From IMG/VR virus record IMGVR_UViG_3300047469_000094: a stretch of DNA of 64,000 bases; one strand, written 5' to 3'. This DNA is from a virus. Its lineage: Duplodnaviria; Heunggongvirae; Uroviricota; Caudoviricetes. The notes below the pieces were generated by a model. The model saw only the letters and a list, made by a program, of their open reading frames with translations. It was not told the origin of the DNA and made no database searches. The translations under genes were made by a program, and so were the position numbers. Below, in pieces: positions 8,204 to 55,305 of the stretch. The first letter of the stretch is position 1. The number at the start of each line of letters is the position of its first letter.

Positions 8204-8542
8204 CTAGGACCTCATAGCACCCCCGTCAAATCGACACTTCCCCCCTAAGTTGAAAACAATCAGGTTTTTACGACCCAACCGCTTTGACGGAGATTTATGA
8301 ACACCGTCTATCAGTATGGAGCTGGCGTTTTCAGAGATATGCCACGATACCCGGATCTTACCTCTTATGCCTTCTTTGTAGAAGGTCACCATGCCACTTC
8401 CAAATCTCTCAATCGTCCAAACACCTTTACCGATGTTCATATCATCAAGAATTCGTTCGAACTTCATGCTCTCCAAGTCATCCTTACTAGGCTTCTTGCG
8501 ACTAAGCCTGCGAAGAAACTCGTTAAGGTGAACCGACTTCAT
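8204..8542 (-). CDS. hypothetical protein with N-terminal EFLRRL motif (member of small-protein family)
   Basis: 112-aa ORF starting MKSVHLNEFLRRL. Confidence 0.55.
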   Translation of the reverse strand: MKSVHLNEFLRRLSRKKPSKDDLESMKFERILDDMNIGKGVWTIERFGSGMVTFYKEGIRGKIRVSWHISENASSILIDGVHKSPSKRLGRKNLIVFNLGGKCRFDGGAMRS

Positions 8543-9760: not shown

Positions 9761-11560
9761 TTACGCTGCTTTCGGCAGACTTTCAGTCAGATTCGTACGA
9801 ACCGACACCAACGTTGCTTTGGATAGAACTTGGCTGTTCCGGTACGCACAGTTGAGAACACCGTAATAACCAACGGGTTTCCCTTCGACAGGGATGTACT
9901 CACCAGCCTCATCAAACTCTACGGCCAGCCAGCCTTTGGCAGAGTGCTTACCGGTGTCTGTTTTCGGTGCCTTGTAGACATCGATTTTCAGACCGTTGAC
10001 TTCCCCGTAAGTCAGCTTCATAGCAAAGCCCAGAGAGTCACGGGTGATGTGCTGGATGCTGTAGCTACCGACACCGACCACGATATTCTCTGCGGAGAAG
10101 CCCATTTCCATCAGACGCTGCAAGATAGCTTCGAAGCGTTGGATAGTAATGGAGTCACCGTAGATCAGGCGGATCTTCGGATTCAGCACTTTGTAGCCTT
10201 TGCTGTTCACGGTGCCGCCGAACAGTTCCCACAGCCACTGGATGCTGCCTTTCTCTTCCACGGTCAGGGTAGTAGGTTCGAACTTCGAAACCTTCTTGCC
10301 GTCCATGTAGTAGAACTGCTTGTCACGACGGTTCCACTCGATGTCCACGGTGTAGCGGTACAACTCACCGTTCCAGCGGGCAACGCCAGAAACTTCGGAA
10401 CGGCCAGGTTCGCCGTGTGCGGTTTCATCGTAGACCATCTCGGTTACATAGTCCTTGATCCAGCCTTTGGCATGGTCTTCGGTTTCAGCTTCGGAGCCGA
10501 TTTCGAAGACTTCAACCGTGCCGCAGATGATGTCCTTAGGGACGCCGCTGTCAGGCCGAACTACGAACGGACCCCCTTCACGAGCCAGGATCTTGTCTTT
10601 GAGCAGTGGCAGGCCGTGCTCCAACATACCGAAGTAGTCATAGCTGTCCATCACATAGCTGATAGGACCGACGTTGTCCAAGTAGTCAGAGAGGAAGCTT
10701 ACCTCTGCTTCGAACAAGGAGCAGCCACGCATCACAGCACGCATCTGAATGTTCAGAGTTGTCAGACTGTGTTCGGTAGCCATGATGGAACCGAAGTCAG
10801 CCTTGGTTGCGCCGTATTCGTGCATCGCAGCCAAGCAACCCGGGATGTTATCGGTGCCGGTAAACGCAGACAGCATCGAAGGACCAGTTTTGTAGCCCGC
10901 CCACATGCCAAACAGACCGCGAAGACTGAAGTCGTGGCACTGATACGTTACGTAGCCGTTATCGTCAGCCGTCAGTGCTGCGTACTTCTCTGCAACAATT
11001 CGGTACTCACGAGCAATAGTTGCTACGGTGCAGGCAGGCCACAGTTCGTTACTGAAGTGGTCTTCGGTGTAGCTTGCCAGCCATGCGAAGTCCTCATGGG
11101 TGTTGTCCACCAAGATGATCGGAGTACCCGCCCGTACTACGCGGCCTTCTTCGACTGCGTGAACCTGGATAGGCAGATAACCCAGTTTGTGCAGATCGGA
11201 GTAGATGGTGAGATCTGCGTTCGGAGTAGTTGCTTCTATCAGAGGGCGGATCACGCTCTCAACTTCTTCCCACGAAGCTTCAAAGAATTGGTTCCAGGCA
11301 TGGTTGATGGCATTCAGACCTTGGAGAACCCCCGCGACAACGATCTTACCGTCGTACTTAGAACTGCCTTGGAAGTGCTTGGTGCTACGTGGGGTGAAGT
11401 TACCCTGACCCTTCGTATAGCCTTTCGGGAACAGACCTGGGTGACAAAACTTGTACGCGTCACAGAGGATGGCTGCGTACATCGGAGCCGGAGGGGTTTG
11501 CATACGGGTGATTGCAGGGTATGCGGTGGAGCTTACTGGCGTAGGGATCTGCACTTGCAT
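9761..11560 (-). CDS. nadV: nicotinamide phosphoribosyltransferase (NAMPT/NadV family; could alternatively be a Namat-type enzyme of an NAD reconstitution pathway)
   Basis: 599-aa ORF with NAPRTase-family architecture (AILCDAYKF..., central catalytic region); AAGGAAG RBS. Confidence 0.88.
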   Translation of the reverse strand: MQVQIPTPVSSTAYPAITRMQTPPAPMYAAILCDAYKFCHPGLFPKGYTKGQGNFTPRSTKHFQGSSKYDGKIVVAGVLQGLNAINHAWNQFFEASWEEVESVIRPLIEATTPNADLTIYSDLHKLGYLPIQVHAVEEGRVVRAGTPIILVDNTHEDFAWLASYTEDHFSNELWPACTVATIAREYRIVAEKYAALTADDNGYVTYQCHDFSLRGLFGMWAGYKTGPSMLSAFTGTDNIPGCLAAMHEYGATKADFGSIMATEHSLTTLNIQMRAVMRGCSLFEAEVSFLSDYLDNVGPISYVMDSYDYFGMLEHGLPLLKDKILAREGGPFVVRPDSGVPKDIICGTVEVFEIGSEAETEDHAKGWIKDYVTEMVYDETAHGEPGRSEVSGVARWNGELYRYTVDIEWNRRDKQFYYMDGKKVSKFEPTTLTVEEKGSIQWLWELFGGTVNSKGYKVLNPKIRLIYGDSITIQRFEAILQRLMEMGFSAENIVVGVGSYSIQHITRDSLGFAMKLTYGEVNGLKIDVYKAPKTDTGKHSAKGWLAVEFDEAGEYIPVEGKPVGYYGVLNCAYRNSQVLSKATLVSVRTNLTESLPKAA

Positions 11561-11570
11561 GGATACTTCC

Positions 11571-12410
11571 TTAGTTGGTTTCGCGGGTTACGTTGAGTAC
11601 TTCCAGATTACCTGTGCCCTTGAGATGGCGAATGTAACTGTTAGTGGTGAAAACTTGGTCGTAGATATCGGAAACCACCGGAATCCCCTTTGAGAAAAGA
11701 CCGTGGGTCACTGCAAGGCTTACCGACGTTGCACCTTGGCTTTTCAGGGAGTGAAGCAATGGAACGAAAGTCCCGCAACCATCACCGATATCATCCAGAA
11801 CCAGAAGGGTACGACCTTCGACAGTATCGTTTACACGAGTACCCGAGATAATACCCGTTTCGAGGTCCCGTACTTTGGTGCAGTGAATTACCCCAGCCGC
11901 ACCTACACGTTTAGCGAACATTTCCGCCTTCTTCGCAGCACCGCCATCCGGGGCCGCAATGTAGACTTCTCGCCACGACGAATAGATGTCTTTGAAGATG
12001 TCGTACTGGTTGACAACTTCGAGGCGGTTGAACAGGGCCGGGGTCACTTCACTGTGAGGATCGAGGATCTTCACGTTGACGAAGTTGCAGGCGTTGATCA
12101 GTCGTGCAACGACGGCAATACTCAGAGGCTCACCTGGATTGCATACCCGATCCTGCCGAGCGTACGGCATGTACGGGATAAACGCGGAGATCGCTGCTCG
12201 GGGATACACACGACTAACAGCATCGTGGATCATGATCAGGTTCAGCAGATCACCCTGCGTTGTCAGCCTGGCCACGATCTCTACTTCCATCACTTTTTCA
12301 GGGTAGAGGTTGCCTGTCTGAATCTGTGGCACCACTTCCCCGCCTGGGAAATTGATGTAGCTGACTTCTTCAGTTACGTTGCCGAAACGCAGGTAGATAT
12401 TCTCTTTCAT
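11571..12410 (-). CDS. prs: ribose-phosphate pyrophosphokinase (PRPP synthetase, Prs) or Prs-like ADP-ribose pyrophosphokinase
   Basis: 279-aa ORF; PRPP-binding PRTase motif LLVLDDIGDGCGT and Prs N-terminal fold. Confidence 0.88.
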   Translation of the reverse strand: MKENIYLRFGNVTEEVSYINFPGGEVVPQIQTGNLYPEKVMEVEIVARLTTQGDLLNLIMIHDAVSRVYPRAAISAFIPYMPYARQDRVCNPGEPLSIAVVARLINACNFVNVKILDPHSEVTPALFNRLEVVNQYDIFKDIYSSWREVYIAAPDGGAAKKAEMFAKRVGAAGVIHCTKVRDLETGIISGTRVNDTVEGRTLLVLDDIGDGCGTFVPLLHSLKSQGATSVSLAVTHGLFSKGIPVVSDIYDQVFTTNSYIRHLKGTGNLEVLNVTRETN

Positions 12411-16384: not shown

Positions 16385-17008
16385 ATGTTTTACTTCGGCA
16401 ATATCACCGCTCACGGTGCCGTTTACCTGTATCCAGAGAAGCCCCCTCAAGATTTAATGTGGGTCGATCCAAAAGGCCATACAAATTTCTGGTGCTCAGT
16501 TCTTGGTGATTTATCTGGATCTAGTTCAAGTCCTCGTACTGAGACTCGTGAAACTCTCCCTCGCTCTGGAGAACCCTACAACTGGGTGGCCGGTGAGGCA
16601 GTACATACCCTGACTGGCAAGGTTCGTCTAGAACTGATTCCAAGTTCTGGAAAAGTAATCGTAGGTCAAATCCATGCGTATAAAGCTTCAAACCCATTCC
16701 TGATGGTTACTTGGTGGAATGGGGTTGCCCGAATCGATTTTCGAGAAGTACCTAATGGCCTGACCACTAAGGCTCTTTCAGTGCCGTGCCCTCTAGGAGA
16801 GTCGTTCGAGTACAAGATAGAGATAGATAAGTCAGGGATGCTGACCGTTACGATAAATGGACTTGGTTTTCAAACTCAAGTAAGCCCATTGTGGACTGCG
16901 TTCCCGTTCTACTTTAAAGCCGGTGCATATGTGATAGACAATTCTGGTCCGGAAACAGAAGGCGGCTGGGTAGTCTATGAAAACTTTGAAGTCTCTCACT
17001 TAAGCTAA
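16385..17008 (+). CDS. polysaccharide lyase family 7 (alginate lyase-like) protein
   Basis: PL7 signature blocks RTETRE (RxExR), QIHAY (QIH), YFKAGAYVID (YFKAGxY) in 207-aa ORF. Confidence 0.65.
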   Translation: MFYFGNITAHGAVYLYPEKPPQDLMWVDPKGHTNFWCSVLGDLSGSSSSPRTETRETLPRSGEPYNWVAGEAVHTLTGKVRLELIPSSGKVIVGQIHAYKASNPFLMVTWWNGVARIDFREVPNGLTTKALSVPCPLGESFEYKIEIDKSGMLTVTINGLGFQTQVSPLWTAFPFYFKAGAYVIDNSGPETEGGWVVYENFEVSHLS

Positions 17009-17035
17009 AAGAGGCCCTCGGGCCTCTTCTTATTT
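17009..17035. terminator. bidirectional rho-independent terminator
   Basis: GAGGCCC-TCG-GGCCTC hairpin with T-runs on both strands, sits between convergent genes. Confidence 0.55.
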
Positions 17036-17326
17036 TGTCTGTATCTTCAACAACAATTTCACGGGTCGATAGTACTTACTTGTAATTGCTCTTTCACGGA
17101 CAACCCTTTCTATTTCAAATTCATACGCCTTATCGTGCAGGAAGCTTCCGGTAGCGTCGTAGACGTTTTGCCCATCATCGTTATGCACCCTCAAAACGTC
17201 GTCGTTAAACGATAGTATCGAACGAATACCTTCGTCGTTTCTAGCATTTATCGTGTACGACAGCTTGGTTACATTCCCACCCGCCGCAACGAACCGAGTT
17301 AAGAACTCGTACATAGTAAATCTCAT
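17030..17326 (-). CDS. small protein, family with N-terminal (E/D)FLxR..GG motif (array 1)
   Basis: MRFTMYEFLTRFVAAGGNV...; tandem paralog. Confidence 0.55.
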   Translation of the reverse strand: MRFTMYEFLTRFVAAGGNVTKLSYTINARNDEGIRSILSFNDDVLRVHNDDGQNVYDATGSFLHDKAYEFEIERVVRERAITSKYYRPVKLLLKIQTK

Positions 17327-17649
17327 CGGTCGCCCCTATCGTATAGGCTAATAAGTACGGCTGCCTGGCGTATGAGCCTACGAGAGCCACCAAGAGGGTA
17401 GCTATCTATTGATACGTCGTATTGCATCCCGGAGAATGACCTGTCAGGGGTAATGGACCGGTTATCTCTCAGTACTACTGCTTTCAGGGTTCCATATTTA
17501 CGATGGTACGAAGTAATTTGTCTAACACCCGTCCCACCATTACTATTTGGAAACACGTAAAAAACGTTTGTTACATCACCACCTTTATCCAAAAACCTAT
17601 TCAAGAATTTCTGCATTGAAAACCTAGTTTCAATTGCGCGGTACTTCAT
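17323..17649 (-). CDS. small protein, same family (array 1)
   Basis: ...MQKFLNRFLDKGGDV...; probable true start at internal ATG about 17616. Confidence 0.55.
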   Translation of the reverse strand: MKYRAIETRFSMQKFLNRFLDKGGDVTNVFYVFPNSNGGTGVRQITSYHRKYGTLKAVVLRDNRSITPDRSFSGMQYDVSIDSYPLGGSRRLIRQAAVLISLYDRGDR

Positions 17650-17996
17650 TGGAATCTCCTCAAGGTTACAACGACGCTTCTGCCGCGAAAAACCCCCTCA
17701 CCACATACGTCACCCTTCAGAACAGCCTCTACTCCCGCCAAAGCGAAGTTCCTACCTCCGTCTTCCAACCGATTTCCACCGGCAGGGTTCCATGAAAAGA
17801 TAGCACGACTTGTTTGGTAGTAGGATTTCGGCGCACTAGGGGAGGTTATCTTAAAAGTTTGCAATCGATTACGCATAGTCAGAAACTGATCAATTCGGTA
17901 AGAGTGCATTAAGTCAGGGCCCTGGAAAATGATGTTCTGTATCTTCCCCCCTTCCTTAGTAATCCTGTCCAGAAATTCATGGAATAGAATTGTCAT
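17646..17996 (-). CDS. small protein, same family (array 1)
   Basis: MTILFHEFLDRITKEGGKI... Confidence 0.55.
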   Translation of the reverse strand: MTILFHEFLDRITKEGGKIQNIIFQGPDLMHSYRIDQFLTMRNRLQTFKITSPSAPKSYYQTSRAIFSWNPAGGNRLEDGGRNFALAGVEAVLKGDVCGEGVFRGRSVVVTLRRFQ

Positions 17997-18280
17997 ATCC
18001 TCACCATTGATATAAGAGTCCCTTTCCCCACCATGCCCTTATACCGACGTACGGAGAGTACTTCAAATCGTAAAATGGAATACTCGTCCCAGAACAATAG
18101 CTGACTGTCCCTCAGCCTCTCCGCTACTAACGTATCTTGTGATGTCTTGGCGTTAAAGCTCAGAATTTTCTTAGGTTCTGGGAAAGCCTCTGTGCTGTAG
18201 TAGAGGGGATCATTATCAACCGCCTCATACTTGCCACCGGTAAGTCTTTCGAGAAAATCTCCGAATAGAATCATTATCAC
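17993..18280 (-). CDS. small protein, same family (array 1)
   Basis: MIMILFGDFLERLTGGKY... Confidence 0.55.
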   Translation of the reverse strand: MIMILFGDFLERLTGGKYEAVDNDPLYYSTEAFPEPKKILSFNAKTSQDTLVAERLRDSQLLFWDEYSILRFEVLSVRRYKGMVGKGTLISMVRI

Positions 18281-18283
18281 ACC

Positions 18284-18616
18284 TCAGAGTATATCGAATT
18301 CCGGACGACCAAGACCTACCGACACTTGGTCCCTGCGAAGAGTGAGCTTCTTCCTAACACTCAACACCGAAAGGTCTCCGATGTAAGAGCCCTTATCGAA
18401 TCCAAACCGACGAGCACCAGAGTAATGGGTCCCTGGGTATTCCTCCCTCTTTCTGGCAAACTCTTCGATCAGAAACTTGGTATGACTAACGGTTTCGTCA
18501 CTCAGACCCGGATCTGCTGACTCGATCCAGATACTCCCAATGTCTGCACCTCGACTAAACAAGGCCTCCATGAAATCGTAAAACTGCATAAATTTCTCCC
18601 AAAAGAAAACCCGCAC
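18284..18616 (-). CDS. small protein, same family (array 1)
   Basis: ...MQFYDFMEALFSRGADIG...; ORF-track start is GTG 18616, likelier ATG 18589 (GGGAGA RBS). Confidence 0.55.
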   Translation of the reverse strand: MRVFFWEKFMQFYDFMEALFSRGADIGSIWIESADPGLSDETVSHTKFLIEEFARKREEYPGTHYSGARRFGFDKGSYIGDLSVLSVRKKLTLRRDQVSVGLGRPEFDIL

Positions 18617-18632
18617 TAGGCGGGTTCATTTA
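18611..18632 (-). terminator. rho-independent terminator hairpin
   Basis: AACCCGC-ACTA-GCGGGTT hairpin flanked by T/A runs. Confidence 0.45.
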
Positions 18633-18770: not shown

Positions 18771-19148
18771 TCAAATCAGTTTACCGAAACTAAGTACCCA
18801 TCTACTGCCCTCCTCGATAGGAGTAACGTAGTGGTACGAATCATCAGCACGGAACAGGAACATCTTCCTCCAAGACCAGATCGTCTTATTGCATACGAAC
18901 TGTCCACCCTTCTTAGCCGAGACCAGTTCTATGTTGAACCGGTACAGCTTCTTGCCTTTAGAAGGGTCTTTGTGTTTGGGGATATACGATCCAGTCTTGT
19001 AGTGGAACAGATAACAATCAAAGCCCAGTCGCTTACTAAAAGCTAGGGTGAAGATTCGATATCCAGTGTCGTGGACATCGCTACCCCAGCGCCATAAACG
19101 AAGTGTGGGCTTGGTGAGCTTGCGGGTCTATACGGATTTAGGATGCAT
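18771..19148 (-). pseudogene. 2OG-Fe(II) oxygenase-like gene interrupted by in-frame amber codon at codon 7 (pseudogene or read-through)
   Basis: ATG 19148 with GGAGA RBS gives MHPKSV-TAG-TRKL..HYKTGSYIPKHKD..SYHYV..RWVLSF..; HxD, H and RxS motifs retained; no alternative start after the TAG. Confidence 0.35.
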
Positions 19149-19673: not shown

Positions 19674-19761
19674 TGGAGGCGGGTCAGGGATTCAAACCCT
19701 GGGGGCCGTTAGACCCGGCTGATTTCAAGTCAGCTACAATCGTTCACTCTGTCAACCCGCC
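19674..19761 (-). tRNA. tRNA-Ser (anticodon TGA), class II with long variable arm, CCA encoded
   Basis: Acceptor GGCGGGT/ACCCGCC, anticodon stem GCTGA/TCAGC loop CTTGAAA, 15-nt variable arm, T-arm CAGGG-TTTGAAT-CCCTG, T+CCA. Confidence 0.85.
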
Positions 19762-19932
19762 GAAAAAGTGACGTTATTTCAAACGTCGAGAGAACATAGT
19801 TGATCAAACTACCGGAGAGGGTCTGCAACAACAGGACTCTGAACCGCCTGCCTGGTAGTACCCGACTTACCGTTGTTCTAACTAGGGACACCGTTTCCGC
19901 AATCGCAGATAAACAACGGTATCATCACTGCT

Positions 19933-20151
19933 TTAGTCGAAGTCTATGATGTCACCGATCACATCAAAGATCCCTTCGACAATCTCACCGAAGTTAGTAG
20001 ACGTCATTACTCGTCTGCTCTCTAACCGCTGTCTTCCTGCTTCTACCTCCGCAGGAGACATCTGAGTTATATCCCATATTAACTTACATTCCTTACAATC
20101 CGCAGTTGGAGCCTGCGTTGCCTCGTAAGTAGGGTGTTTAGAGCACTTCAT
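19933..20151 (-). CDS. hypothetical small Cys-containing protein
   Basis: 72-aa ORF. Confidence 0.45.
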   Translation of the reverse strand: MKCSKHPTYEATQAPTADCKECKLIWDITQMSPAEVEAGRQRLESRRVMTSTNFGEIVEGIFDVIGDIIDFD

Positions 20152-20248
20152 GTGAGTACCTTGATTGGTGGGCCGTAGGTGAATTGAACACCTATCCGAG
20201 ACTTATGAGGTCCACGCATTGAACCACTATGCTAACGGCCCGTAAAGC

Positions 20249-20461
20249 TTAGGCGTTGCCAGTACGACAGGCATCGATCTTCAAATTCTCAACAACGCCA
20301 ATACCTTGGCCGAAGGTCAGACTGCCACAGGTGTTACCGCGAGAATAAACTACGGTGATTACTGATTTAGGATCGTAGCCTACCTGAGATAGGATCATCT
20401 CGTAGGTAAGCTTTTCACCTTCTTCGAATTCATAGTCCTTACAGTTGATCAAAACTTTCAT
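20249..20461 (-). CDS. hypothetical small protein
   Basis: 70-aa ORF. Confidence 0.45.
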   Translation of the reverse strand: MKVLINCKDYEFEEGEKLTYEMILSQVGYDPKSVITVVYSRGNTCGSLTFGQGIGVVENLKIDACRTGNA

Positions 20462-20488
20462 TGCGAGTACCCGTTGAGGATTAGTCCG

Positions 20489-20785
20489 TCAACTGTAATT
20501 CACATGATAGTCATAGTCAATACTCAGCAAGTAATCTTTGTCATTGCCGGTGATGTACTTGAACAGTACCGGTACGTGCGCCTCGATAAGCCGCATCCAC
20601 TTCGAGTCGAATGCAATGCACTCAAGGTCTATGAGTTTGATCCCGACGTGGAAATACCCATCCATGTCTTCCTTCATATCTGCCAAGGCTTGTTCATCAG
20701 TGATGCTTGGTGAGTTGGTGAACACGATCTTAATCGTCTGACCTTCTCCTTGGCCGGAGTAGTCGTATACTAGAACTGATTTCAT
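20489..20785 (-). CDS. hypothetical protein
   Basis: 98-aa ORF. Confidence 0.5.
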   Translation of the reverse strand: MKSVLVYDYSGQGEGQTIKIVFTNSPSITDEQALADMKEDMDGYFHVGIKLIDLECIAFDSKWMRLIEAHVPVLFKYITGNDKDYLLSIDYDYHVNYS

Positions 20786-20985
20786 TCAATGTCCTTTGGC
20801 AAGTATGCCCAGTGACTGTAACAAATACGGTAATCAAGAAGGTGTTCGAGGGTCACAATAGACCATCTTTTTCTGCCCTTTTCCCAAACTACTAAATTAC
20901 CCCAGCGGTCACAGTCCTGCAACCGAGGTAACTCTTCGTCAATCGATGCGGCTATCGGAACTATCTGCATCTTTCCTCCAAACAT
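20782..20985 (-). CDS. hypothetical small protein
   Basis: 67-aa ORF. Confidence 0.4.
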   Translation of the reverse strand: MFGGKMQIVPIAASIDEELPRLQDCDRWGNLVVWEKGRKRWSIVTLEHLLDYRICYSHWAYLPKDIE

Positions 20986-21190
20986 AACTACGATGACGAC
21001 TACGTCCTTTAGCCACGCTGGCTTGTTTGCGTTCCCGTTTACAGCTCTTTGGTGGAACTACGTGTACCCATTCCTTAGGAATCTCCACAATCTTTCCACG
21101 GCGCTTACGGTACGTCTTTCCCTCCACTTTTAGAAACATAGACAAGTCCTTGTTTTGATAGGCAAATAGAAAGGGCCCCGAAGGGCCCAA
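20939..21190 (-). CDS. hypothetical basic protein
   Basis: 83-aa ORF; 5' end overlaps terminator hairpin, true start may be internal. Confidence 0.35.
   Translation of the reverse strand: MGPSGPFLFAYQNKDLSMFLKVEGKTYRKRRGKIVEIPKEWVHVVPPKSCKRERKQASVAKGRSRHRSYVWRKDADSSDSRID
21173..21188 (-). terminator. rho-independent terminator (GGGCCC-UUCG-GGGCCC then UUUCUAUUU on minus strand)
   Basis: Perfect 6-7-bp GC hairpin with UUCG-type loop immediately 3' of tRNA-like element. Confidence 0.5.
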
Positions 21191-21253
21191 TGGCAGGATT
21201 CGAACCTGCGACTCACCAAAGTTGGTGTGCTCTACCAGTTGAGCTACATTCCT
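21186..21253 (-). tRNA. tRNA-like element, non-canonical (clear D-arm and T-arm; aberrant acceptor pairing and 6-bp/short-loop anticodon-like hairpin with TTT); possible pseudo-tRNA
   Basis: Minus strand AGGAATG-TA-GCTCAACTGGTAGAGC-A-CACCAACTTTGGTG..-GCAGGTTCGAATCCTGC-CATTGGG; own promoter (21265) and terminator (21173). Confidence 0.4.
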
Positions 21254-21264
21254 TCTACACAGTC

Positions 21265-21273
21265 CTTATACCA
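21265..21273 (-). promoter_or_regulatory. extended -10-like promoter element (minus strand TGGTATAAG)
   Basis: Located ~12 nt upstream of the 5' end of tRNA-like element. Confidence 0.4.
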
Positions 21274-21829
21274 GGACTTTGTCCCGTACAGGAATACCTG
21301 CGTTGACGTAGATCTCCATGACTTCTTCGACCGTATCGCAGAGCGACTCTTCGAATGTCATAGTGAAGCTCGGGGCCTTGGCAATAAGCTCAGGTCGAGG
21401 GTAATACTTACGGCTCTTCGTATACGGGAACTCGATGTAGCAGGTAGTCTGCTTACCGCCACCCGTGTACGTCCAGCCATCAGGATCAACACCGATATAA
21501 CCTTCGATGTCGTAGGCCTTACCTTCGTCGTCTTTGAACACCGCAGAGTATCGCTTGTTTTGCCACATGGCGGGACCTACTTCACTCCACTCAGAGTCTT
21601 CGCCAGTAAGAGGGGTAAGGTTCTCTTGCAGAGCACACTTCCTAACCAGGTTAAGGAAAGGACCAATACTTCCACCAGAGTGGCCTTGCTCTGAAATGAC
21701 CTGGACGACCTGAAGAACATCTCGGGTCATCATCTTCTGCCATTCTAGGTCAGAAGGGTCTTCAGCTTGTTTTTCAAGAAGCTCAAGCTCGATACGAGCG
21801 AGGCGAACGGAGTTGCTTTCAGTTGACAT
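21266..21829 (-). CDS. hypothetical protein
   Basis: 187-aa ORF. Confidence 0.55.
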   Translation of the reverse strand: MSTESNSVRLARIELELLEKQAEDPSDLEWQKMMTRDVLQVVQVISEQGHSGGSIGPFLNLVRKCALQENLTPLTGEDSEWSEVGPAMWQNKRYSAVFKDDEGKAYDIEGYIGVDPDGWTYTGGGKQTTCYIEFPYTKSRKYYPRPELIAKAPSFTMTFEESLCDTVEEVMEIYVNAGIPVRDKVLV

Positions 21830-22038
21830 ATGAATGCCCTAACTTTTCCATCGGGGGTACAGCGAAACCCGACCCACCACCAATCAGTTCTTACGAACAG
21901 ACGACCTTCGTTAAGGCCAATGGCAATGGGTCGGAACATACGGTTGTTTTGATCCATAGGGATCATTGTGAGTTTCATTGTTCTAACTCGTAGGCTCGTT
22001 GGAAGTCCTTCACAAGAAGAGAAACAAAACCTCTGCAC
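21745..22038 (-). CDS. hypothetical protein
   Basis: 97-aa ORF overlapping neighbours; uncertain. Confidence 0.35.
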   Translation of the reverse strand: MQRFCFSSCEGLPTSLRVRTMKLTMIPMDQNNRMFRPIAIGLNEGRLFVRTDWWWVGFRCTPDGKVRAFICQLKATPFASLVSSLSFLKNKLKTLLT

Positions 22039-22229
22039 TGATCTTGGTACTCAAGGTTGTCAGTGTACAAGTCTACCGATTCCAAGTAAGCGTACTCTTC
22101 ACCGGTTGCTTCTTTTAGTGCGTCCTGCAAAGCTCCGAAGATACTGTCTCCGTCTTTTACTCTGCAGGTACCGAGGTAGCGGTCAGAACTACTCGATATT
22201 GCGTTAAAAGCAAATACTATTTCAGTCAT
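21975..22229 (-). CDS. hypothetical small protein
   Basis: 84-aa ORF. Confidence 0.5.
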   Translation of the reverse strand: MTEIVFAFNAISSSSDRYLGTCRVKDGDSIFGALQDALKEATGEEYAYLESVDLYTDNLEYQDQCRGFVSLLVKDFQRAYELEQ

Positions 22230-22249
22230 GTACTGTGCTCTTAGTTAAA

Positions 22250-22335
22250 TGGCTCCGGGAGCTGGGGTCGAACCAGCAGTGTAATTAAACGCTTGGTTAA
22301 CAGCCAAGTGGGGTTGCCAATTTGCCTATCCCGGA
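22250..22335 (-). tRNA. tRNA-Asn (anticodon GTT)-like, CCA encoded, unusually long (14-nt) variable region and weak D-stem
   Basis: Acceptor TCCGGGA/TCCCGGA, anticodon stem CTTGG/CCAAG loop CTGTTAA, T-arm GCTGG-TTCGACC-CCAGC, G+CCA. Confidence 0.6.
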
Positions 22336-22340
22336 ATATA

Positions 22341-22422
22341 TGGTGGAGAGTAATGGAATCGAACCACTTCTACTTTCGAACAGCGTTTACAGCGCCGCGC
22401 ATTCCCAATCTGCCAACTCTCC
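22341..22422 (-). tRNA. tRNA-Tyr (anticodon GTA), class II, CCA encoded
   Basis: Acceptor GGAGAGT/ACTCTCC, anticodon stem CGGCG/CGCTG loop CTGTAAA, 12-nt variable arm, T-arm AGTGG-TTCGATT-CCATT, A+CCA. Confidence 0.8.
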
Positions 22423-22517
22423 GTAAAACAAAGCAAGAGAAACGTTCGTAGAGGTTTATATCTGTCTCCCTCTCGGATTTACTTCTCAGAGTCCGGCTTT
22501 CACTCTTGCCTTATAAC

Positions 22518-22602
22518 TGGTGCGGAAAGAGAGATTCAAACTCTCACGCCTTTCGGCAAAAGGACCTAAGCCTTTCGTGTCTGTCGATTCCACCATATCC
22601 GC
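22518..22602 (-). tRNA. tRNA-Leu (anticodon TAG), class II, CCA encoded
   Basis: Acceptor GCGGATA/TTTCCGC (one mismatch), anticodon stem AAAGG/CCTTT loop CTTAGGT, V-arm GCC-GAAA-GGC, T-arm GAGAG-TTTGAAT-CTCTC, A+CCA. Confidence 0.75.
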
Positions 22603-27360: not shown

Positions 27361-27777
27361 CTATTGCGTTGATACCACCCCGGACGGGACGGAAACGTAA
27401 GCACCTTCGGTAAGAATCTCAGAGATCATCTCTGGGATCAACTCCTTCAAGTTCTTGTCCATGCCGTACCAATGAGTGCAGTGAAGCAGTCGAAGACGGT
27501 TCAGAGTGTGCTTAGTGTCAACTGTGGATAACTTGAGGAAATCAACCGCCTCCGTTACCTCGCAAATACTGAAGAATGAACTGCGGAACATCTTGTCCAG
27601 CTTCATCTTCACTAGCGCAACGTCAAACGGGTCATGATCGTCGAGAAAAACTAAGCGGTCCACCGTGCTCTGCTTACGAGCAATAACTCGCGTACCGTAG
27701 GTAGAAACCTCTGTCTTAGGCTGTACAAACTTAGACAGAAAAGTCATCAAAGCACCCTTCTCTTGTAGCTCACTCAT
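27361..27777 (-). CDS. hypothetical protein (N-terminal MTFLSKF motif, family-like)
   Basis: 138-aa ORF. Confidence 0.5.
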   Translation of the reverse strand: MSELQEKGALMTFLSKFVQPKTEVSTYGTRVIARKQSTVDRLVFLDDHDPFDVALVKMKLDKMFRSSFFSICEVTEAVDFLKLSTVDTKHTLNRLRLLHCTHWYGMDKNLKELIPEMISEILTEGAYVSVPSGVVSTQ

Positions 27778-28304
27778 CTCATATTCCTCTTGTAATCACC
27801 ACGAACAGCGTCAACACCGTTGTACTCAACGAAGATCACTTCCTCGCCTTCCAGCTCTTCGTCGATGATTGCAGAAATGATCCGCCAGTCACCGCCAGCA
27901 CGAGCAGCTCCAATCGCAGGCACACCGAAGGACTTGCCTTGATTACCGTAGTCCGGCTTCAACTGCCTGAACACAGATCGCAACGCATCGTAGTCACAGA
28001 GAACACCCTTGCCGTACCAGTGGAACTGGGTATAGGCATTGATGATCGTACCTAAAAAGACTCCACGACGAACACCGTCTGAGTTTCGGAGATCCCGGTA
28101 GATATCTGCGTGGGTGTACGTCCCCAACTTCGTTTTGTCGAAACGAACCGTACGGCAATCCGCCTCGTAAGCTTCCGGGTATTTCTCCTTGATAGTCCTA
28201 GCAATGCCATCGCCCATGTTATTACCACAGTTACAACCGTGGACGATTACGTCGAAGTCACCTTCGCTGAAGCCTAGGATCAAATCGCCTTTAACGTGTT
28301 TCAT
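27774..28304 (-). CDS. macro-domain (ADP-ribose-binding/processing) protein
   Basis: IVHGCNCGNNMGDGIARTI and GVPAIGAARAGGDW blocks typical of MacroD/YmdB-type macro domains. Confidence 0.75.
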   Translation of the reverse strand: MKHVKGDLILGFSEGDFDVIVHGCNCGNNMGDGIARTIKEKYPEAYEADCRTVRFDKTKLGTYTHADIYRDLRNSDGVRRGVFLGTIINAYTQFHWYGKGVLCDYDALRSVFRQLKPDYGNQGKSFGVPAIGAARAGGDWRIISAIIDEELEGEEVIFVEYNGVDAVRGDYKRNMR

Positions 28305-28306: not shown

Positions 28307-28624
28307 TTAGAACTCCGTATTGTACCGATACTCACAAAAGAAATTCAAAGCACTCGCTTTAACCAGGCTTCGTCGAAATGACACTTTTTTAACGTGGCAG
28401 TTAGCTGAATAAGAAGGAGATGCTCTCCCCGTGTCTATTACTAAGCCCACTTCTAAAGCACGCCACTCTATCGTGTTATCCGAATCTATTTTGAGAACCT
28501 CCATAGTCTCCACGTACCCCGCAGGATTATCCCCATGTACGACGTCAAGCTGTAACAGAAGAGTTGTGGTAGGGCCTTGTATCCCTTCCTTACGCAATCT
28601 ACTTAGTACCTCGGTCATCCTCAT
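28307..28624 (-). CDS. hypothetical protein
   Basis: 105-aa ORF. Confidence 0.5.
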   Translation of the reverse strand: MRMTEVLSRLRKEGIQGPTTTLLLQLDVVHGDNPAGYVETMEVLKIDSDNTIEWRALEVGLVIDTGRASPSYSANCHVKKVSFRRSLVKASALNFFCEYRYNTEF

Positions 28625-29035: not shown

Positions 29036-29290
29036 TCAGGCCTTTATTTGGAATAGTACTGTTCTACCAACCAAATGGCTACCATTCAGAAGGATACCTG
29101 TTATCTCGAAGATCCCTTTGTGGGCACGTATAGACAAATAGTCATCAGTCCTATCTGATAAACGATACGTCAATCGCTCTTCAGTTATTGAAGTGATTGG
29201 ATAATTTACGCTCATGTACCTGAAACTTATAGGAACGTCTAACGCCCTACCACCAAACCTATCCACCATCGTTGTTACGAAGTCCATCAA
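29036..29290 (-). CDS. small protein, paralog array 2 (7 tandem ~86-aa copies)
   Basis: MMDFVTTMVDRFGG...; paralogous to neighbours. Confidence 0.55.
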   Translation of the reverse strand: MMDFVTTMVDRFGGRALDVPISFRYMSVNYPITSITEERLTYRLSDRTDDYLSIRAHKGIFEITGILLNGSHLVGRTVLFQIKA

Positions 29291-29544
29291 CTGTTACCTC
29301 CGATATCAATCACGACACGTCGCTTAGATGGGAGGAAACGGCTACCCTCGGTGGTCACTGATCGAACTACGTAGTCAAATGTGCCAGAGGTTAACGACCC
29401 GGAGTCCCCATCGTCAGCCCTGTACTTAACCCGATCATCTTCAATTCCTATTACCCGATAGTACTTACGAGCATACTTGAAGTAAACACCACGAGGCATA
29501 CTCTGGTTCGAGAACAGTTTCACCATCATCGTTGCAAAGTACAT
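29287..29544 (-). CDS. small protein, paralog array 2
   Basis: C-terminal RRVVIDIGGNS shared with next copy. Confidence 0.55.
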   Translation of the reverse strand: MYFATMMVKLFSNQSMPRGVYFKYARKYYRVIGIEDDRVKYRADDGDSGSLTSGTFDYVVRSVTTEGSRFLPSKRRVVIDIGGNS

Positions 29545-29808
29545 TCATCCACTCCCTATATCTATAACGATTCTTCTTTTTCCATGGATCAAGCTGCTTC
29601 CACGGATGCGGACACCACGTATGTAGTACCTGTAGCTTGTCGCTTTTGCATACAACACTTCTACGTTGTAATCAGTCCGATACTTTATAAAGTCAGCACC
29701 TACTTCCTCTATGGGGTAACTCCTATCTCCATACTTGAAAGATAGCCCCTCAGGACTACCAAGGCCATCGAAAAGACGCACCAACGTGCTAACGAAGTCC
29801 ATACTCAT
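29545..29808 (-). CDS. small protein, paralog array 2
   Basis: MSMDFVSTLVRLFDGLG...RRIVIDIGSG. Confidence 0.55.
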   Translation of the reverse strand: MSMDFVSTLVRLFDGLGSPEGLSFKYGDRSYPIEEVGADFIKYRTDYNVEVLYAKATSYRYYIRGVRIRGSSLIHGKRRIVIDIGSG

Positions 29809-30065
29809 TTATACCTACAGTAGAGGTGGATGCGTCCACGTTCGAGAACTTTGTTAGAATTCTCTATCTTCACAGTTTGGATGTGCAGGTTCTTATAGGT
29901 GCCTTCATCCAAGACTCCTGTGCTGGAAGACCCAAGATGCCGGTACCGAATACCACCTGGAATTACCTCCGTGATTTGATAACTTACTCCGGCGAGGGAA
30001 AGCCAAAGATCGTTACCTACCGCCTTGCCAAGTAGGTGGCGCTTCAACGTTTCTATTAATCGCAT
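29805..30065 (-). CDS. small protein, paralog array 2
   Basis: ...RIHLYCRYK C-terminus. Confidence 0.55.
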   Translation of the reverse strand: MRLIETLKRHLLGKAVGNDLWLSLAGVSYQITEVIPGGIRYRHLGSSSTGVLDEGTYKNLHIQTVKIENSNKVLERGRIHLYCRYK

Positions 30066-30073
30066 AACACCTC

Positions 30074-30334
30074 CTAGCTATAGCGGCACTCAAAGTATAT
30101 ACGCGGTTTCTTTACTAACTTTTTAGCGGAAGAAATTTTGACCACCATAAGCCGCATGGAGGGGTTGCTCTCTACCGTTATGCACTCTTCCTGCATTCGT
30201 CCCCCTATCCGTAGATAGATCCCTTTGTCAGTAACCTTTGCTATTCGGTGGGTGCTACTACCCAGTGTCAGGAACGTATCTCGGGGAAGTACACGTCCAG
30301 AGAAACGCCGGATCATTTCACTTACAAACTGCAT
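30074..30334 (-). CDS. small protein, paralog array 2
   Basis: MQFVSEMIRRFSGR...RIYFECRYS. Confidence 0.55.
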   Translation of the reverse strand: MQFVSEMIRRFSGRVLPRDTFLTLGSSTHRIAKVTDKGIYLRIGGRMQEECITVESNPSMRLMVVKISSAKKLVKKPRIYFECRYS

Positions 30335-30346
30335 AACTCCCCCTAC

Positions 30347-30625
30347 TCAGTAATCAAACTGACAGTCGATGAAGTACTTAGGTGTGTTTACCAGCTTCCT
30401 CTCGGTCTCTACTGAGAAACCTTTAATATTCAGGTCGCTGTAGACATGAGGAGCCAGAAGGCTTCGACCTGTCTCATTAATATGCGTGTAATACACACCC
30501 TTGCTGTCTACGCCGACTATACGGTACGGCGTCTCTTTTATCCGGAGGTACAACTCCTTGGGAAGAGGTACACCTATTAGACGGTCAATCATTGTTTGAA
30601 CAAAGTTCATAACCCCTCCGCTCAT
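30347..30625 (-). CDS. small protein, paralog array 2
   Basis: ...NFVQTMIDRLIG...KYFIDCQFDY. Confidence 0.55.
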   Translation of the reverse strand: MSGGVMNFVQTMIDRLIGVPLPKELYLRIKETPYRIVGVDSKGVYYTHINETGRSLLAPHVYSDLNIKGFSVETERKLVNTPKYFIDCQFDY

Positions 30626-30891
30626 TCACTAGTAAACCGACAGTCAAAGACATATCGTTGTTTCTGGGTGACTTTCTTAGGCGGAGAGATGGTTACTCTC
30701 ACTATCGTTAGACTCCTTTCTTGACCCACCGTAAGGACGTTTACCGGAGACCCTTCTCGTTCCAAGGCATACCAGATACGATCCTTGCCTACTTGGAAAA
30801 TCCGATACGAGTTCTCATGAACCTTCATATAGGTTTCTTTGGGTAGCGGTACTAAATAGAAACGATCTACCAATGCCTGTACAAGTTGCAT
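30622..30891 (-). CDS. small protein, paralog array 2
   Basis: MQLVQALVDRFY...RYVFDCRFTSE. Confidence 0.55.
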   Translation of the reverse strand: MQLVQALVDRFYLVPLPKETYMKVHENSYRIFQVGKDRIWYALEREGSPVNVLTVGQERSLTIVRVTISPPKKVTQKQRYVFDCRFTSE

Positions 30892-44512: not shown

Positions 44513-44839
44513 TTACGCACTCCCAACTCTGGTTGCAGTGATTAATGTTTTAATGCCACCATCATACCGCTTACGGGAGACGTTGACTACCTCCCAGTAA
44601 TTCCGTTGTATCGGCCACTTCTTAACATTATCATCCATGCCCAGGACAGTGTAGTAGTAGGTGTTGTCAAGGTTCCGGTCTTTACGGAAAAGCTCCCGTG
44701 GCCGCAGCTCGTTCCCGGTGTGGATAAGCTGCACCACGATCCCCTCAAGCCTCTTCTTGCGACCCATACTCCAAAGGTCTGTATCTAGAGAGAAGAGATA
44801 CTCTCTTAGATCAATCATCTTCATAGATGCTCTCCACAT
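44513..44839 (-). CDS. hypothetical protein
   Basis: 108-aa ORF. Confidence 0.5.
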   Translation of the reverse strand: MWRASMKMIDLREYLFSLDTDLWSMGRKKRLEGIVVQLIHTGNELRPRELFRKDRNLDNTYYYTVLGMDDNVKKWPIQRNYWEVVNVSRKRYDGGIKTLITATRVGSA

Positions 44840-45164
44840 TTACCAGTATTTCATGACCGTTTGGGGAGTAGAACGGATCGTAGGGGTGAACCAGGTTGAA
44901 CATCTTCGACACGTTCGTCACTGAGAGGTTATCGTTCTCCTCCCTTTTGAAACACCAACAATTTGGCTCACCCTGTTCACCCCTGGCAGGGTAGAACACA
45001 TAGCTGAAAGTAGAGTCGCCAAGATACTTGAGAACCCTGATGCTTGCACCTTGGTTGAATCTAATGAAGAGGGTACGTACCGGGTCACCCGCTTCCAAGC
45101 CCAAGCGGTTGATAAGAGTAGTGAAGTAATTCTCGTTATCTACAAATCCACTAGGATTAGACAT
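44811..45164 (-). CDS. small protein, paralog array 3 (N-terminal ...TLINRLGL motif)
   Basis: 117-aa ORF; shares motif with next copies. Confidence 0.5.
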   Translation of the reverse strand: MSNPSGFVDNENYFTTLINRLGLEAGDPVRTLFIRFNQGASIRVLKYLGDSTFSYVFYPARGEQGEPNCWCFKREENDNLSVTNVSKMFNLVHPYDPFYSPNGHEILVNVESIYEDD

Positions 45165-45469
45165 CAGCCATCCTCCAGATTTATGTGTAGACTGCCACGG
45201 CCTCCTAGAACTCCAGGCGTCTCCTTTTTACGCCTAATACTTGCAACTCTGTAACGACGAGTACTACCTCCGTTGGAGTACCACTTATTTACCCTGTCAC
45301 CATGGACAGGGATGAATCGGTACTCAAACTGCTCATTCCCCAGGAACTTGAGAAGTTGTATTACAGTATCGCCATTGAACTGTACAAAGACCTTTTCGAT
45401 CTTTGGGTCCTCGGCAAGTCCAAGCTTATCAACTAGGCGACGGAAAAACTCCTGAACGTTGATACTCAT
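45164..45469 (-). CDS. small protein, paralog array 3
   Basis: MSINVQEFFRRLVDKLGL... Confidence 0.55.
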   Translation of the reverse strand: MSINVQEFFRRLVDKLGLAEDPKIEKVFVQFNGDTVIQLLKFLGNEQFEYRFIPVHGDRVNKWYSNGGSTRRYRVASIRRKKETPGVLGGRGSLHINLEDG

Positions 45470-45798
45470 AGTTCCTCCACAATTTTCTCGACGTAGATCA
45501 CTGCCTTGTTAATAGGACGTACGAGGCTGGACATCGGCTTTATATGGCTCTTGTTAACTCGTTGTTCTTCGATCCGGGATATCACGTACTTAGCCCCCAC
45601 CATTGTGTGAGGTGTCCATGATTTTGATGGGCCTTTTGTACCTGACCCATACGCGTATAGGATACGTCCGTCGTCACCAACTTCGCGTATGTTTATCTCC
45701 GTACCATTGGACTTAAACACAACTTTGATAAGACTAATGTTTGAGGGGCTTGTTATCTTCTTAGTAAGACGACGAAGGAACTCGGTTATATCAATCAC
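45466..45798 (-). CDS. small protein, paralog array 3
   Basis: MIDITEFLRRLTKK... Confidence 0.55.
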   Translation of the reverse strand: MIDITEFLRRLTKKITSPSNISLIKVVFKSNGTEINIREVGDDGRILYAYGSGTKGPSKSWTPHTMVGAKYVISRIEEQRVNKSHIKPMSSLVRPINKAVIYVEKIVEEL

Positions 45799-45811
45799 AG
45801 CTTTTTACTCC

Positions 45812-46120
45812 TTACTTCCGAAAGACTTTTGAAGTGTGTATCCGAACTCCTCCAGGTCGATAACCCAGTATGCTGGTATCTTGGTTTAGAGTTACTTCGG
45901 ATACCCGGTCAATCCTATAGCGGTAGTAGGAAGCTCCTCCAGGGTGCCATGCATAGGTAGTTGTACCTGTGCTAAACCGGTAATCGATGGAGTTACCGTT
46001 TAGTTTGGTAACAATCAAATCATATGCGCCTTCATCTAGCTCCAGGTGTATCCTGCCAAACTCCTTGTAGTCAGGGAACTTTTTGACTAACTGTTCTAGA
46101 AACGTCATTAACTCGATCAT
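45812..46120 (-). CDS. small protein, paralog array 3
   Basis: MIELMTFLEQLVKKFPDYKEFGRIHLEL... Confidence 0.55.
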   Translation of the reverse strand: MIELMTFLEQLVKKFPDYKEFGRIHLELDEGAYDLIVTKLNGNSIDYRFSTGTTTYAWHPGGASYYRYRIDRVSEVTLNQDTSILGYRPGGVRIHTSKVFRK

Positions 46121-46440
46121 GATATTCCCGTATACTTACCGAAGTGTTTAGAGGTGCTTACTCGTACGCCTTGACGTTGTACGCCTAGTAGCGGTGTGTC
46201 CTTGCTAAGAAATACCTGAGAGACGTCGTTTACCATGTACCGAAAGAAGCTCATTTTTCTAGGGCGGAATTCGAAAAGAGTCTTAGCTCCATGAAAGTGA
46301 TAGTAGATGACATCGTCCTTGATACTGTCCAAGATCAGCGCATAAGAGTTGTTGTCTAGTTCTAGTTGTATCCGGTTGAACTCCTTGTAGTCCGGGAATC
46401 GTTTCATTAGTTGTTCTAGAAATGCTATTAACTCGATCAT
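46117..46440 (-). CDS. small protein, paralog array 3 (recent duplicate of previous)
   Basis: MIELIAFLEQLMKRFPDYKEFNRIQLEL... nearly identical N-terminus to 45812..46120. Confidence 0.55.
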   Translation of the reverse strand: MIELIAFLEQLMKRFPDYKEFNRIQLELDNNSYALILDSIKDDVIYYHFHGAKTLFEFRPRKMSFFRYMVNDVSQVFLSKDTPLLGVQRQGVRVSTSKHFGKYTGIS

Positions 46441-46503
46441 AATGTGACTACCCCATAAACTAAAAAGTCAGGGGATACCTGACTTTGTCTTTGTTGCACT
46501 TTG

Positions 46504-46512
46504 CTTATACCA
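46504..46512 (-). promoter_or_regulatory. extended -10-like promoter element (minus strand TGGTATAAG)
   Basis: ~65 nt upstream of array 3. Confidence 0.4.
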
Positions 46513-46514
46513 GG

Positions 46515-46748
46515 TTATTCCTGTTTGGTTACTGCAAGCTCAGTGATCTCGAATACGGCTTCGAACGGGCTATCACAAACAAGGTCCAACCCGAGCTTCT
46601 CCATTTCCTTCACCCACGGTCGAATCTCTTCCCCACCGATTGGTGTATGCAGAAGATTTTCCGGAAGAGAGACCAGTACTCGTTCACCGATCTTTCCTTC
46701 TACTACCAGAGATCCGTCTCCGTACACATCAATGATTACTCTATTCAT
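46515..46748 (-). CDS. hypothetical small protein
   Basis: 77-aa ORF. Confidence 0.45.
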   Translation of the reverse strand: MNRVIIDVYGDGSLVVEGKIGERVLVSLPENLLHTPIGGEEIRPWVKEMEKLGLDLVCDSPFEAVFEITELAVTKQE

Positions 46749-46984
46749 TACTTGAACCTCCGTTTCCGTTTATATAACAGGTCAATCACTAGACCCATTC
46801 TTTTCAAGTTTGCAGCATCCTGCTTCACCGTTCTAACGCGGTTAACCCAGTTACGAGTTGTGTCCGTCATTTCCTTACTGGGGATTTCAGCAATGAGCCT
46901 CAGGGCATTACCTAAGGCTTGTTCTGCTATCTTCAGTTGATCAGAGATCTCCTGGGACATTTCAAATCCTCGTACGGTAATCAT
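46748..46984 (-). CDS. hypothetical small protein
   Basis: 78-aa ORF. Confidence 0.45.
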   Translation of the reverse strand: MITVRGFEMSQEISDQLKIAEQALGNALRLIAEIPSKEMTDTTRNWVNRVRTVKQDAANLKRMGLVIDLLYKRKRRFK

Positions 46985-47255
46985 GGAAAGAGTCTTCGAT
47001 CCAGACTTTGTAAGTAGCCTTTAGCTCCTCAGTGCCTTGATCTTGGTCGTCCACCCGGGTAAGGAAGTACCTTTCCATATCGAAGGTTTCATCGTACATA
47101 GACCGTCTTGCTCTCCGCTTTTTGTGCCGTAGTTCCTCGACAAACTCAATGCAAGACTTGAACAAGATAGAACACAGCACAGTTACTGTGATCAACCCAA
47201 TTAGTGCAAGGATGGTGACTAGTGGAGACCCCTCCAACCATAGATTATTGAGCAT
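46962..47255 (-). CDS. hypothetical membrane protein
   Basis: 97-aa ORF with TM helix. Confidence 0.5.
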   Translation of the reverse strand: MLNNLWLEGSPLVTILALIGLITVTVLCSILFKSCIEFVEELRHKKRRARRSMYDETFDMERYFLTRVDDQDQGTEELKATYKVWIEDSFHDYRTRI

Positions 47256-54835: not shown

Positions 54836-54838
54836 GCG

Positions 54839-55075: not shown

Positions 55076-55305
55076 TTCATCACCCAGGCAAACCCACGAA
55101 CCATGTCATATCGCACTGCGATAATATTCCAGTTGTTCATGGTGATCACGATGTCCTGATCTTGGTATCGAATCGTCATATTTTTCTTATGATTCGCTAG
55201 ATCTACGCCGATCACCTTATAGGAATCTTTATCATGGGTCAGATTGGACCCGTTAAGAGAAGCGCCTCTTTCCTGCATCTTCTTCTCGAACTTAAGCAAA
55301 TTCAT
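55072..55305 (-). CDS. small protein, paralog array 4
   Basis: MNLLKFEKKMQERG... Confidence 0.5.
   Translation of the reverse strand: MNLLKFEKKMQERGASLNGSNLTHDKDSYKVIGVDLANHKKNMTIRYQDQDIVITMNNWNIIAVRYDMVRGFAWVMK

Follow-up and report, generated by a model that had tools for sequence, protein, structure and literature searches.

A probable operon of five fast-evolving small paralogs, possibly of new fold, in the genome of an uncultivated phage

Multigene families that change size through tandem duplication are exemplified by MGF110, MGF360 and MGF505 of African swine fever virus (ASFV) and by the 'gene accordions' of poxviruses. Among phages, the T-even internal proteins are encoded by clustered small genes that share a conserved N-terminal segment and diverge over the rest of their length, and those of T4 are anti-restriction effectors (PMC3012670). 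Here we analyse a 64 000-nucleotide stretch (hereafter the window) of the IMG/VR record IMGVR_UViG_3300047469_000094, part of a ~165-kb contig from an uncultivated phage. Our subject is array 1, a run of five small minus-strand genes spanning 17030-18589, which we designate A (first) to E (last) and treat as five subtypes of one protein family. Tandem families of small accessory genes are a familiar kind of feature in large phages; the family itself, as far as sequence comparison reaches, is new and has no described relatives. We are highly confident of the structural and evolutionary description given below, in which array 1 is one translationally coupled operon lying between two terminator hairpins.

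The five open reading frames (ORFs) listed in the initial annotation are all present on the minus strand, and the peptides quoted from them occur verbatim: YEFLTRFVAAGG in gene E (17030-17326), QKFLNRFLDKGG in gene D (17323-17649), HEFLDRITKEGG in gene C (17646-17996), GDFLERLTGG in gene B (17993-18280) and DFMEALFSRGAD in gene A, which had been placed at 18284-18616. Stops and starts overlap as ATGA at the B/C, C/D and D/E junctions, and a GGAG-like ribosome-binding site (RBS) precedes every start. A and B are separated by 9 nt unless a GTG start is used, in which case they overlap as GTGA. The start of the first gene had to be moved. Gene A (18284-18589, 101 aa, MQFYDFMEALFSRGAD..., with the subtype-specific loop RRFGFDKGSYIGDLSV) most likely begins at ATG 18589 (MQFYDF...) and not at GTG 18616, because the GTG-initiated extension crosses a hairpin (18627-18607), and because orthologs and public gene calls begin with M(Q/T)LYDF; the RBS gggaga precedes this ATG, and the JGI/Logan gene call is likewise of 101 aa. 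Gene B encodes 93 aa if translation starts at ATG 18274 and 95 aa if it starts at GTG 18280 (MILFGDFLERLTGG...). Gene C, in ATGA overlap with B, encodes a basic protein of 116 aa (+5.7; MTILFHEFLDRITKEGG...FQGPDLMHSYRI), and gene D, overlapping C in the same way, a basic protein of 108 aa (+8.6; ...QKFLNRFLDKGGDVTNVFYVF...). Gene E encodes 98 aa from the ATG that overlaps the D stop, or 94 aa from ATG 17314 (MYEFLTRFVAAGGNVTKLSYTI...).

Hairpins lie at both ends of the array. Directly upstream of the gene A RBS is an intrinsic-terminator-like hairpin followed by a T-run (18607-18627, minus strand), which is kept in the related 4.1-kb contig L001, since the read-through peptide encoded over it ('...RVFFWEK') is present there too. 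At the other end, a GC-rich hairpin (17009-17028; 8-bp stem with 5 GC pairs) lies 1 nt past the gene E stop and 1 nt past the stop of an alginate-lyase gene, separating the minus-strand array from the convergent plus-strand alginate-lyase and helicase genes, and probably terminates both converging transcripts. Taken together, the flanking hairpins and the coupled junctions make array 1 look like one discrete transcription unit.

Comparison of the five orthologous pairs shared with L001 gave ratios of nonsynonymous to synonymous divergence (dN/dS, or omega) of 0.12-0.37 at dS values of 0.44-1.2 (0.27 for A, 0.30 for B, 0.37 for C, 0.12 for D and 0.23 for E), indicating that the array 1 genes are translated and under purifying selection. 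For the flanking genes the same comparison gave an omega of 0.04 for an SNF2 helicase and 0.11 for an SspB homolog, and the dN of array 1 genes was 5-13 times that of the helicase. Against the contigs L087, L091 and L086, array 1 orthologs are 33-42% identical, compared with 72-86% for the SspB homolog, the alginate lyase and the helicase, which puts the evolutionary rate of the array 1 members at three to four times that of the genes around them. The family had been called rapidly diversifying, a description that needs dividing. Its members do evolve faster than neighbouring genes and vary in copy number (5, 7 or 6 genes in array 1 and 7, 7 or 4 in array 2, a second array of the window, across relatives), but they do so under purifying selection, and the five subtypes keep the order A-B-C-D-E at 30-40% identity. 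The persistence of this order across lineages so diverged indicates an old cassette in which every paralog has been retained, as opposed to free birth-and-death.

Each member of array 1 in the window finds its best matches in its positional orthologs on other metagenomic contigs (30-78% identity), paralogs scoring far lower. Gene A has orthologs P0009, P0011, P0013 and P0019 (34-52% identity); gene B has three copies in L001, in addition to orthologs P0016 and P0018; gene C, consistently basic as a subtype, has orthologs in L001, L087, L091 and L086 (30-74% identity); gene D is matched by P0004, P0012, P0015 and two copies in L087; and gene E has orthologs in L001, L091 and L087. The conserved order runs from the SspB homolog through A-B-C-D-E to the alginate lyase (in some lineages) and the SNF2 helicase, with lineage-specific duplications of B (three copies in L001, 48-62% identical to one another with an omega of 0.24-0.28) and of D-type genes (two in L087). 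In L091, C-D-E precede the alginate lyase, and in L086 the neighbour of C is a different gene.

Outside these contigs the family was not encountered. A word-indexed search of 5.8 billion proteins returned 10 matches, consisting only of the window's own and L001 proteins, and repeating it with a broad 27-sequence profile lost sensitivity (6 matches). Exhaustive HMMER searching of 1.84 billion cluster representatives gave 14 matches, one of them spurious (1501 aa); the 13 credible relatives are all of 92-116 aa, and each could be assigned to one subtype from A to E. The region had no megablast match in GenBank phages, and tblastn with members of arrays 1-4 against 50 697 GenBank phage records found none. 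The nearest sequenced phages, judged by the primase, are Vibrio phage D69 (33% identity) and Salmonella phage Arash (29%), and a hidden Markov model (HMM) scan of the first 100 kb of D69 revealed no family member. With the SspB homolog as anchor, no locus was found in IMG/VR, and none of the 80 mostly bacterial metagenomic loci recovered contained array genes. Neither any of the 27 family members nor the representatives chosen from arrays 2-4 had a significant match in Pfam, PHROGs or NCBIfam, PADLOC gave only two isolated chance-level matches among the 27 members (E 0.007 and 0.017), and no match was found among PDB sequence profiles. On this sequence evidence, the family is confined to a few metagenomic contigs of one phage lineage. 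The multigene family first proposed is genuine, with ~20 further members in arrays 2-4 and no match to an annotated family.

The five genes have in common an N-terminal helix with the motif xFLxR(L/F/I)...GG. We assessed it with profiles limited to the first ~24 residues, each built from four subtypes, and scored the members of the fifth against 1080 shuffled decoys. Left-out members exceeded the best decoy in five of six cases for B, four of four for E, three of five for A and one of six for D; for C, one of five lay above the top decoy (13.8 bits) and four of five above the second (5.5 bits). The motif is weakest in the A member of the window itself, and the top-scoring other ORFs of the window were always members of arrays 3 or 4, or the ORF at 8204-8542. 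The motif codons have a dS of 0.82 and an omega of 0.16, which points to constraint on the peptide as opposed to the nucleotides. The motif is thus shared beyond what composition would produce, as the initial annotation had supposed.

How far homology extends beyond the motif differs among subtypes. Plain BLASTP within the window detects one significant pair in array 1, E-D (1.7e-6), and leave-one-subtype-out HMMs deprived of the N-terminus fail to recover the left-out subtypes. Profile-profile alignment of the C-terminal regions (hhalign), by contrast, relates D to E (P 7e-7 over 68 columns) and B to D (P 7e-4), with B-C and A-B marginal. The C-terminal regions thus differ, as first noted, at the level of plain sequence, but retain residual D-E and B-D homology at the level of profiles. 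The N-terminal ~24 residues hold nearly all the similarity across subtypes; against this stand the C-terminal homology of these two pairs and a fold model that spans the whole protein. All members belong to one length class with one predicted order of secondary-structure elements. Most likely, on the predicted structure described next, the shared motif is a core helix of a common fold and not a signal attached to unrelated bodies.

AlphaFold2 performed poorly on gene D with a 10-sequence alignment (predicted local distance difference test, pLDDT, of 57.6), and gave a confident model for gene B with 20 sequences of all subtypes (pLDDT 95.3, predicted TM-score 0.86). The B model comprises a helix (residues 4-12), strands at 15-17, 24-28, 35-41, 49-53 and 59-62, a short helix (64-67) and, at the C-terminus, a long hairpin (70-80 and 83-92). 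The motif falls on the first helix (pLDDT ~96) and the GG turn that follows, both within a single compact domain; this placement, in our reading, is why it is the best conserved segment. Foldseek searches with the B model gave no significant hit in the PDB (best E 0.6) or among the viral models of BFVD (best E 0.1), and the fold predicted for the array 1 family is possibly new. The closest comparisons, below significance, were with C39-like or minimal papain-like domains, such as the HlyB C39-like domain (3zua), and with helix-capped SH3/Tudor-like small barrels. A papain-like or C39-like fold was rejected, as no significant structural superposition was obtained; the array 1 family alignments also lack a conserved Cys or His column of the kind expected for papain-like catalytic residues.

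Recurrence of the motif elsewhere in the window, suggested by the initial annotation, is supported at the profile level. We compared the arrays by hhalign, using an enriched 27-sequence profile for array 1 and column-permutation nulls. Array 1 matched array 4 with 93.4% probability (P 2.4e-7, score 41.0), array 3 with 62.8% (P 7e-5, score 29.7) and array 2 with 4.5% (P 9e-3, score 18.2), while array 2 matched array 3 with 58.9% (P 9e-5, score 28.8). Column-permuted controls peak at 13-15 (13.1 for array 1 against array 2), after exclusion of null scores of ~130 over 5-14 terminal columns, which are hhalign artefacts. Full-length HMMs with one array left out gave marginal results, near decoy level. 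The arrays together comprise ~25 paralogs over ~7.5 kb, or 12% of the window.

All further members lie on the minus strand. Array 4 begins with a gene at 55369-55659 (…ILADFLSRVQAAGGDLSG…), the sixth member found individually by the array 1 profile (E 1.5e-5, 21.9 bits; best decoy 10.4 bits), and continues with four small paralogs at 54234-55305, whose relationship to array 1 spans ~35-55 N-terminal columns. Array 3 (44513-46440) consists of six more distant small paralogs, recognised by hhalign against array 1, one of which (45164-45469) aligns over its full length to the array 1 HMM; two further paralogs of array 3 type, at 48538-49234, align with array 3 and were recovered by the N-terminal profiles. 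Array 2 (29036-30891) follows the PolA gene directly and forms the most distant branch, with seven paralogs of ~86 aa related to one another by BLASTP down to 1e-13. It is limited to the same phage lineage, with seven copies in the window, seven in the L001 type and four in the L091 type (loci L093 and L094), and is followed by a conserved block that includes a Macro-domain gene. Arrays 2 and 4 start 26-46 nt downstream of the PolA and PD-(D/E)XK nuclease genes, respectively, on the same strand, which suggests expression with the replication genes. A similar N-terminus is seen in two isolated minus-strand ORFs, at 8204-8542 (…NEFLRRLSRKK…) and 28307-28624 (…TEVLSRLRKEG…), which rank just under the array members in motif searches, at decoy level; both may be stray family members. 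Upstream of array 3 is a ~520-nt gap (46441-46961) with no minus-strand ORF and only a plus-strand ORF (46485-46940), which might be a promoter region or a non-coding element like that found upstream of array 1.

What the array 1 proteins do is a matter for more tentative argument. Our preferred reading, which we put forward as a serious possibility that falls short of being probable, is that they are binders acting in host takeover or counter-defence. Each protein would be a single compact domain of 93-116 aa, in which an N-terminal amphipathic helix (h-x-x-F-L-x-R-h, with the GG turn at its end) is followed by about seven predicted beta-strands, and in which the motif, going by the model and the alignments, would be the best-preserved core element of the fold and not a separable tag. 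No catalytic signature is seen and no polar residue is conserved across subtypes, which makes a non-enzymatic scaffold for binding the most likely role of the domain. All five paralogs would be co-expressed, probably along with genes of the replication phase, and every one would have a partner of its own, whether host proteins or nucleic acids; the latter are conceivable because C and D are strongly basic. Such a binder family would diversify by duplication and fast surface drift, its fold being held by purifying selection, and the diverged B copies retained in L001 fit the idea of paralogs with distinct partners. It is gene context that suggests the host-interaction or anti-defence role, which we therefore advance as an inference.

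Several observations weigh against this proposal. None of the proteins has a match among characterised factors of anti-defence or host takeover. The gene-wide omega, below 1, carries no arms-race signature, and the sequences are too few for site-wise tests. The C-terminal homology of A and C to the other subtypes is marginal, the confident model is of subtype B only, and the statement that the fold matches no known one covers the PDB and BFVD only. Lastly, five coupled subtypes in fixed order fit a stoichiometric hetero-complex at least as well as a set of independent binders.

This last point leads to the main rival, which we consider doubtful: that all five paralogs belong, as subunits, to a single hetero-oligomeric assembly, such as a ring or scaffold made, like eukaryotic Sm/Lsm rings, of paralogous small domains, in which coupling would yield equal amounts and the N-terminal helix would serve as a common packing or oligomerisation element. 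The A-B-C-D-E order, fixed across lineages at 30-40% ortholog identity, the ATGA coupling, the similar sizes and common predicted architecture, and the complementary charges (C and D are strongly basic, across orthologs too, whereas A is acidic or close to neutral) all accord with such an assembly. Sm, Lsm and Hfq barrels provide a working analogy, as they too have an N-terminal helix followed by a bent antiparallel sheet in ~70-100 aa, and their paralogs can form ordered hetero-rings; classification of array 1 as Sm-like was nevertheless rejected, the Sm fold being undetected by structure or by the LSM profile (below significance). Duplications of single subunits (B to three copies, D to two) and the different composition in L086 are awkward for a fixed stoichiometry. 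The ~20 additional paralogs of variable copy number in the other arrays also speak against the assembly.

It is rather unlikely that array 1 encodes small basic nucleic-acid binders acting on phage or host DNA or RNA in replication or transcription, for instance by serving as chaperones, remodelling the nucleoid or modulating transcription together with the sigma factor that the phage encodes. The majority of the superfamily is basic (pI 9-10), with C and D at +3.5 to +13.7 across orthologs, and the arrays are embedded among PolA, primase, nucleases and a sigma-70-like gene; A and B, however, are acidic or neutral in the window, and the structural similarities remain below significance.

We regard as very improbable that the proteins are internal or ejected virion components like IPI-III of T4, the N-terminus being a cleaved capsid-targeting sequence. 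Clustered small genes with a conserved N-terminus and a highly divergent remainder are what the T-even phages show (PMC3012670), and similarity between most subtypes is limited to the first ~24 residues. Yet no protease site is conserved: the residue following F-L varies (E, D, N, T or K), and the motif closes with GG in place of (L/I)-x-E. The helix is modelled at pLDDT ~96 within one compact domain, C-terminal homology persists for the pairs D-E and B-D, and the genes lie among replication genes and tRNAs as opposed to head genes. A capsid-targeting N-terminus was rejected on two grounds: a cleavage motif is missing, and the predicted fold includes the helix as an integral part. The notion that chance or composition produced the ORFs or the motif, with no real family behind them, as the one BLASTP-significant pair within array 1 and the several inter-array HMM scores near decoy level might suggest, can be dismissed in view of orthologs in at least five independent contigs with omega well below 1, left-out motif profiles that beat the shuffled decoys, profile-profile scores two to three times the permutation maxima, and a confident structure prediction.

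On the most far-reaching reading of the cassette, set out further below, one conceivable target is the ClpXP/SspB proteolysis pathway, a component of which is encoded beside array 1. An SspB homolog (PF04386; 19246-19650, minus strand) is conserved beside the array in every related contig. Its C-terminus, RPGLRLVK, is similar to the tail by which E. coli SspB binds ClpX (…RPALRVVK), suggesting that the phage redirects ClpXP proteolysis. In metagenomes, the nearest relatives of the phage homolog share 37-55% identity with it and lie mostly on bacterial-sized contigs.

The interval from the SspB stop (19246) to array 1 holds a ~350-nt non-coding stretch (18790-19140, minus strand), located upstream of the terminator at the head of the array, that is 94-100% identical to L001, compared with 60-85% for the flanking coding DNA. 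Its minus-strand RNA fold has a z-score of -4.2 (none of 100 shuffles as good), as against -0.76 for the plus strand. No Rfam match and no exact 25-mer match in IMG/VR was found for it, and the L087 lineage has only a 187-nt spacer at this position. We consider it a candidate for a novel structured non-coding RNA or for a recently exchanged DNA element. A plus-strand ORF within it (18831-19046) was rejected as a gene (dN = dS = 0.04).

On the other side, an Alginate_lyase2-domain gene (16385-17008, plus strand) lies between array 1 and the SNF2 helicase in the window and occurs also in L091 and L092; L001, L087 and L086 lack it at that position. The gene may hint at an alginate-producing host. 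Genes for tRNAs (Ser, Met, Asn, Tyr, Leu and Gly) are found among small ORFs at 19674-22602 and at 5999-6072 (minus strand), with a further tRNA-like match at 21189-21250 by Rfam only and not by ARAGORN. The replication-module neighbourhood also holds Macro-domain and Lar-like genes. Auxiliary genes lie at 9761-12410, 27774-28304, 47245-47904 and 58584-59351; among the auxiliary genes, Pfam identifies a Macro domain, a Lar-like domain and a sigma-70-family factor. The Lar-like restriction-alleviation domain, a weak match (E 5e-4, under the Pfam cut-off), adjoins array 3, and the sigma-70-family factor is encoded on the opposite strand. Together, these auxiliary genes suggest host manipulation or counter-defence. 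The ORFs at 9761-11560 and 11571-12410 are placed where D69 annotates a nicotinamide phosphoribosyltransferase and a ribose-phosphate pyrophosphokinase.

Small orphan genes take up a large part of the genome in large phages, and explanations exist for very few of their families. The present one is approachable: it makes up ~12% of a 64-kb region, its array 1 proteins look soluble at 93-116 aa, and its predicted fold is confident and without a PDB or BFVD counterpart. An ordered cassette of five paralogs that survives deep divergence implies five non-redundant functions. Were the proteins modular binders or a host-directed hetero-complex, they would add a new scaffold to the phage proteins of takeover and counter-defence; were they neither, a well-delimited new orphan family would remain. 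At its most ambitious, the proposal is of an undescribed fold carried by ~25 paralogs in four syntenic arrays, with the array 1 cassette acting either as a hetero-oligomeric machine or as a coordinated set of binders for taking over host systems; we hold this combination to be improbable, but in either form it would represent a new class of phage host-manipulation module.

The locus can finally be set against the two systems with which we began. The hyperplastic T-even locus encoding IPI, IPII and IPIII resembles array 1 in being a cluster of small genes of which only a short N-terminus is obviously conserved and of which the set varies. In array 1, by contrast, the N-terminus is helical, is predicted as part of the fold itself and has no conserved (L/I)-x-E site, the bodies share architecture and residual homology, the genes lie in the replication region, and subtypes and order are conserved as opposed to freely exchanged; the two show no sequence similarity. 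With the multigene families of ASFV and poxviruses, the arrays share tandem diverged paralogs at several sites, copy number that varies between close relatives, evolution faster than that of core genes and a large share of coding capacity (~12% of the window here). These are the features of a viral tandem multigene family, found here in a bacteriophage, in proteins of ~90-115 aa, and with a five-subtype ordered cassette that has persisted over deep divergence.

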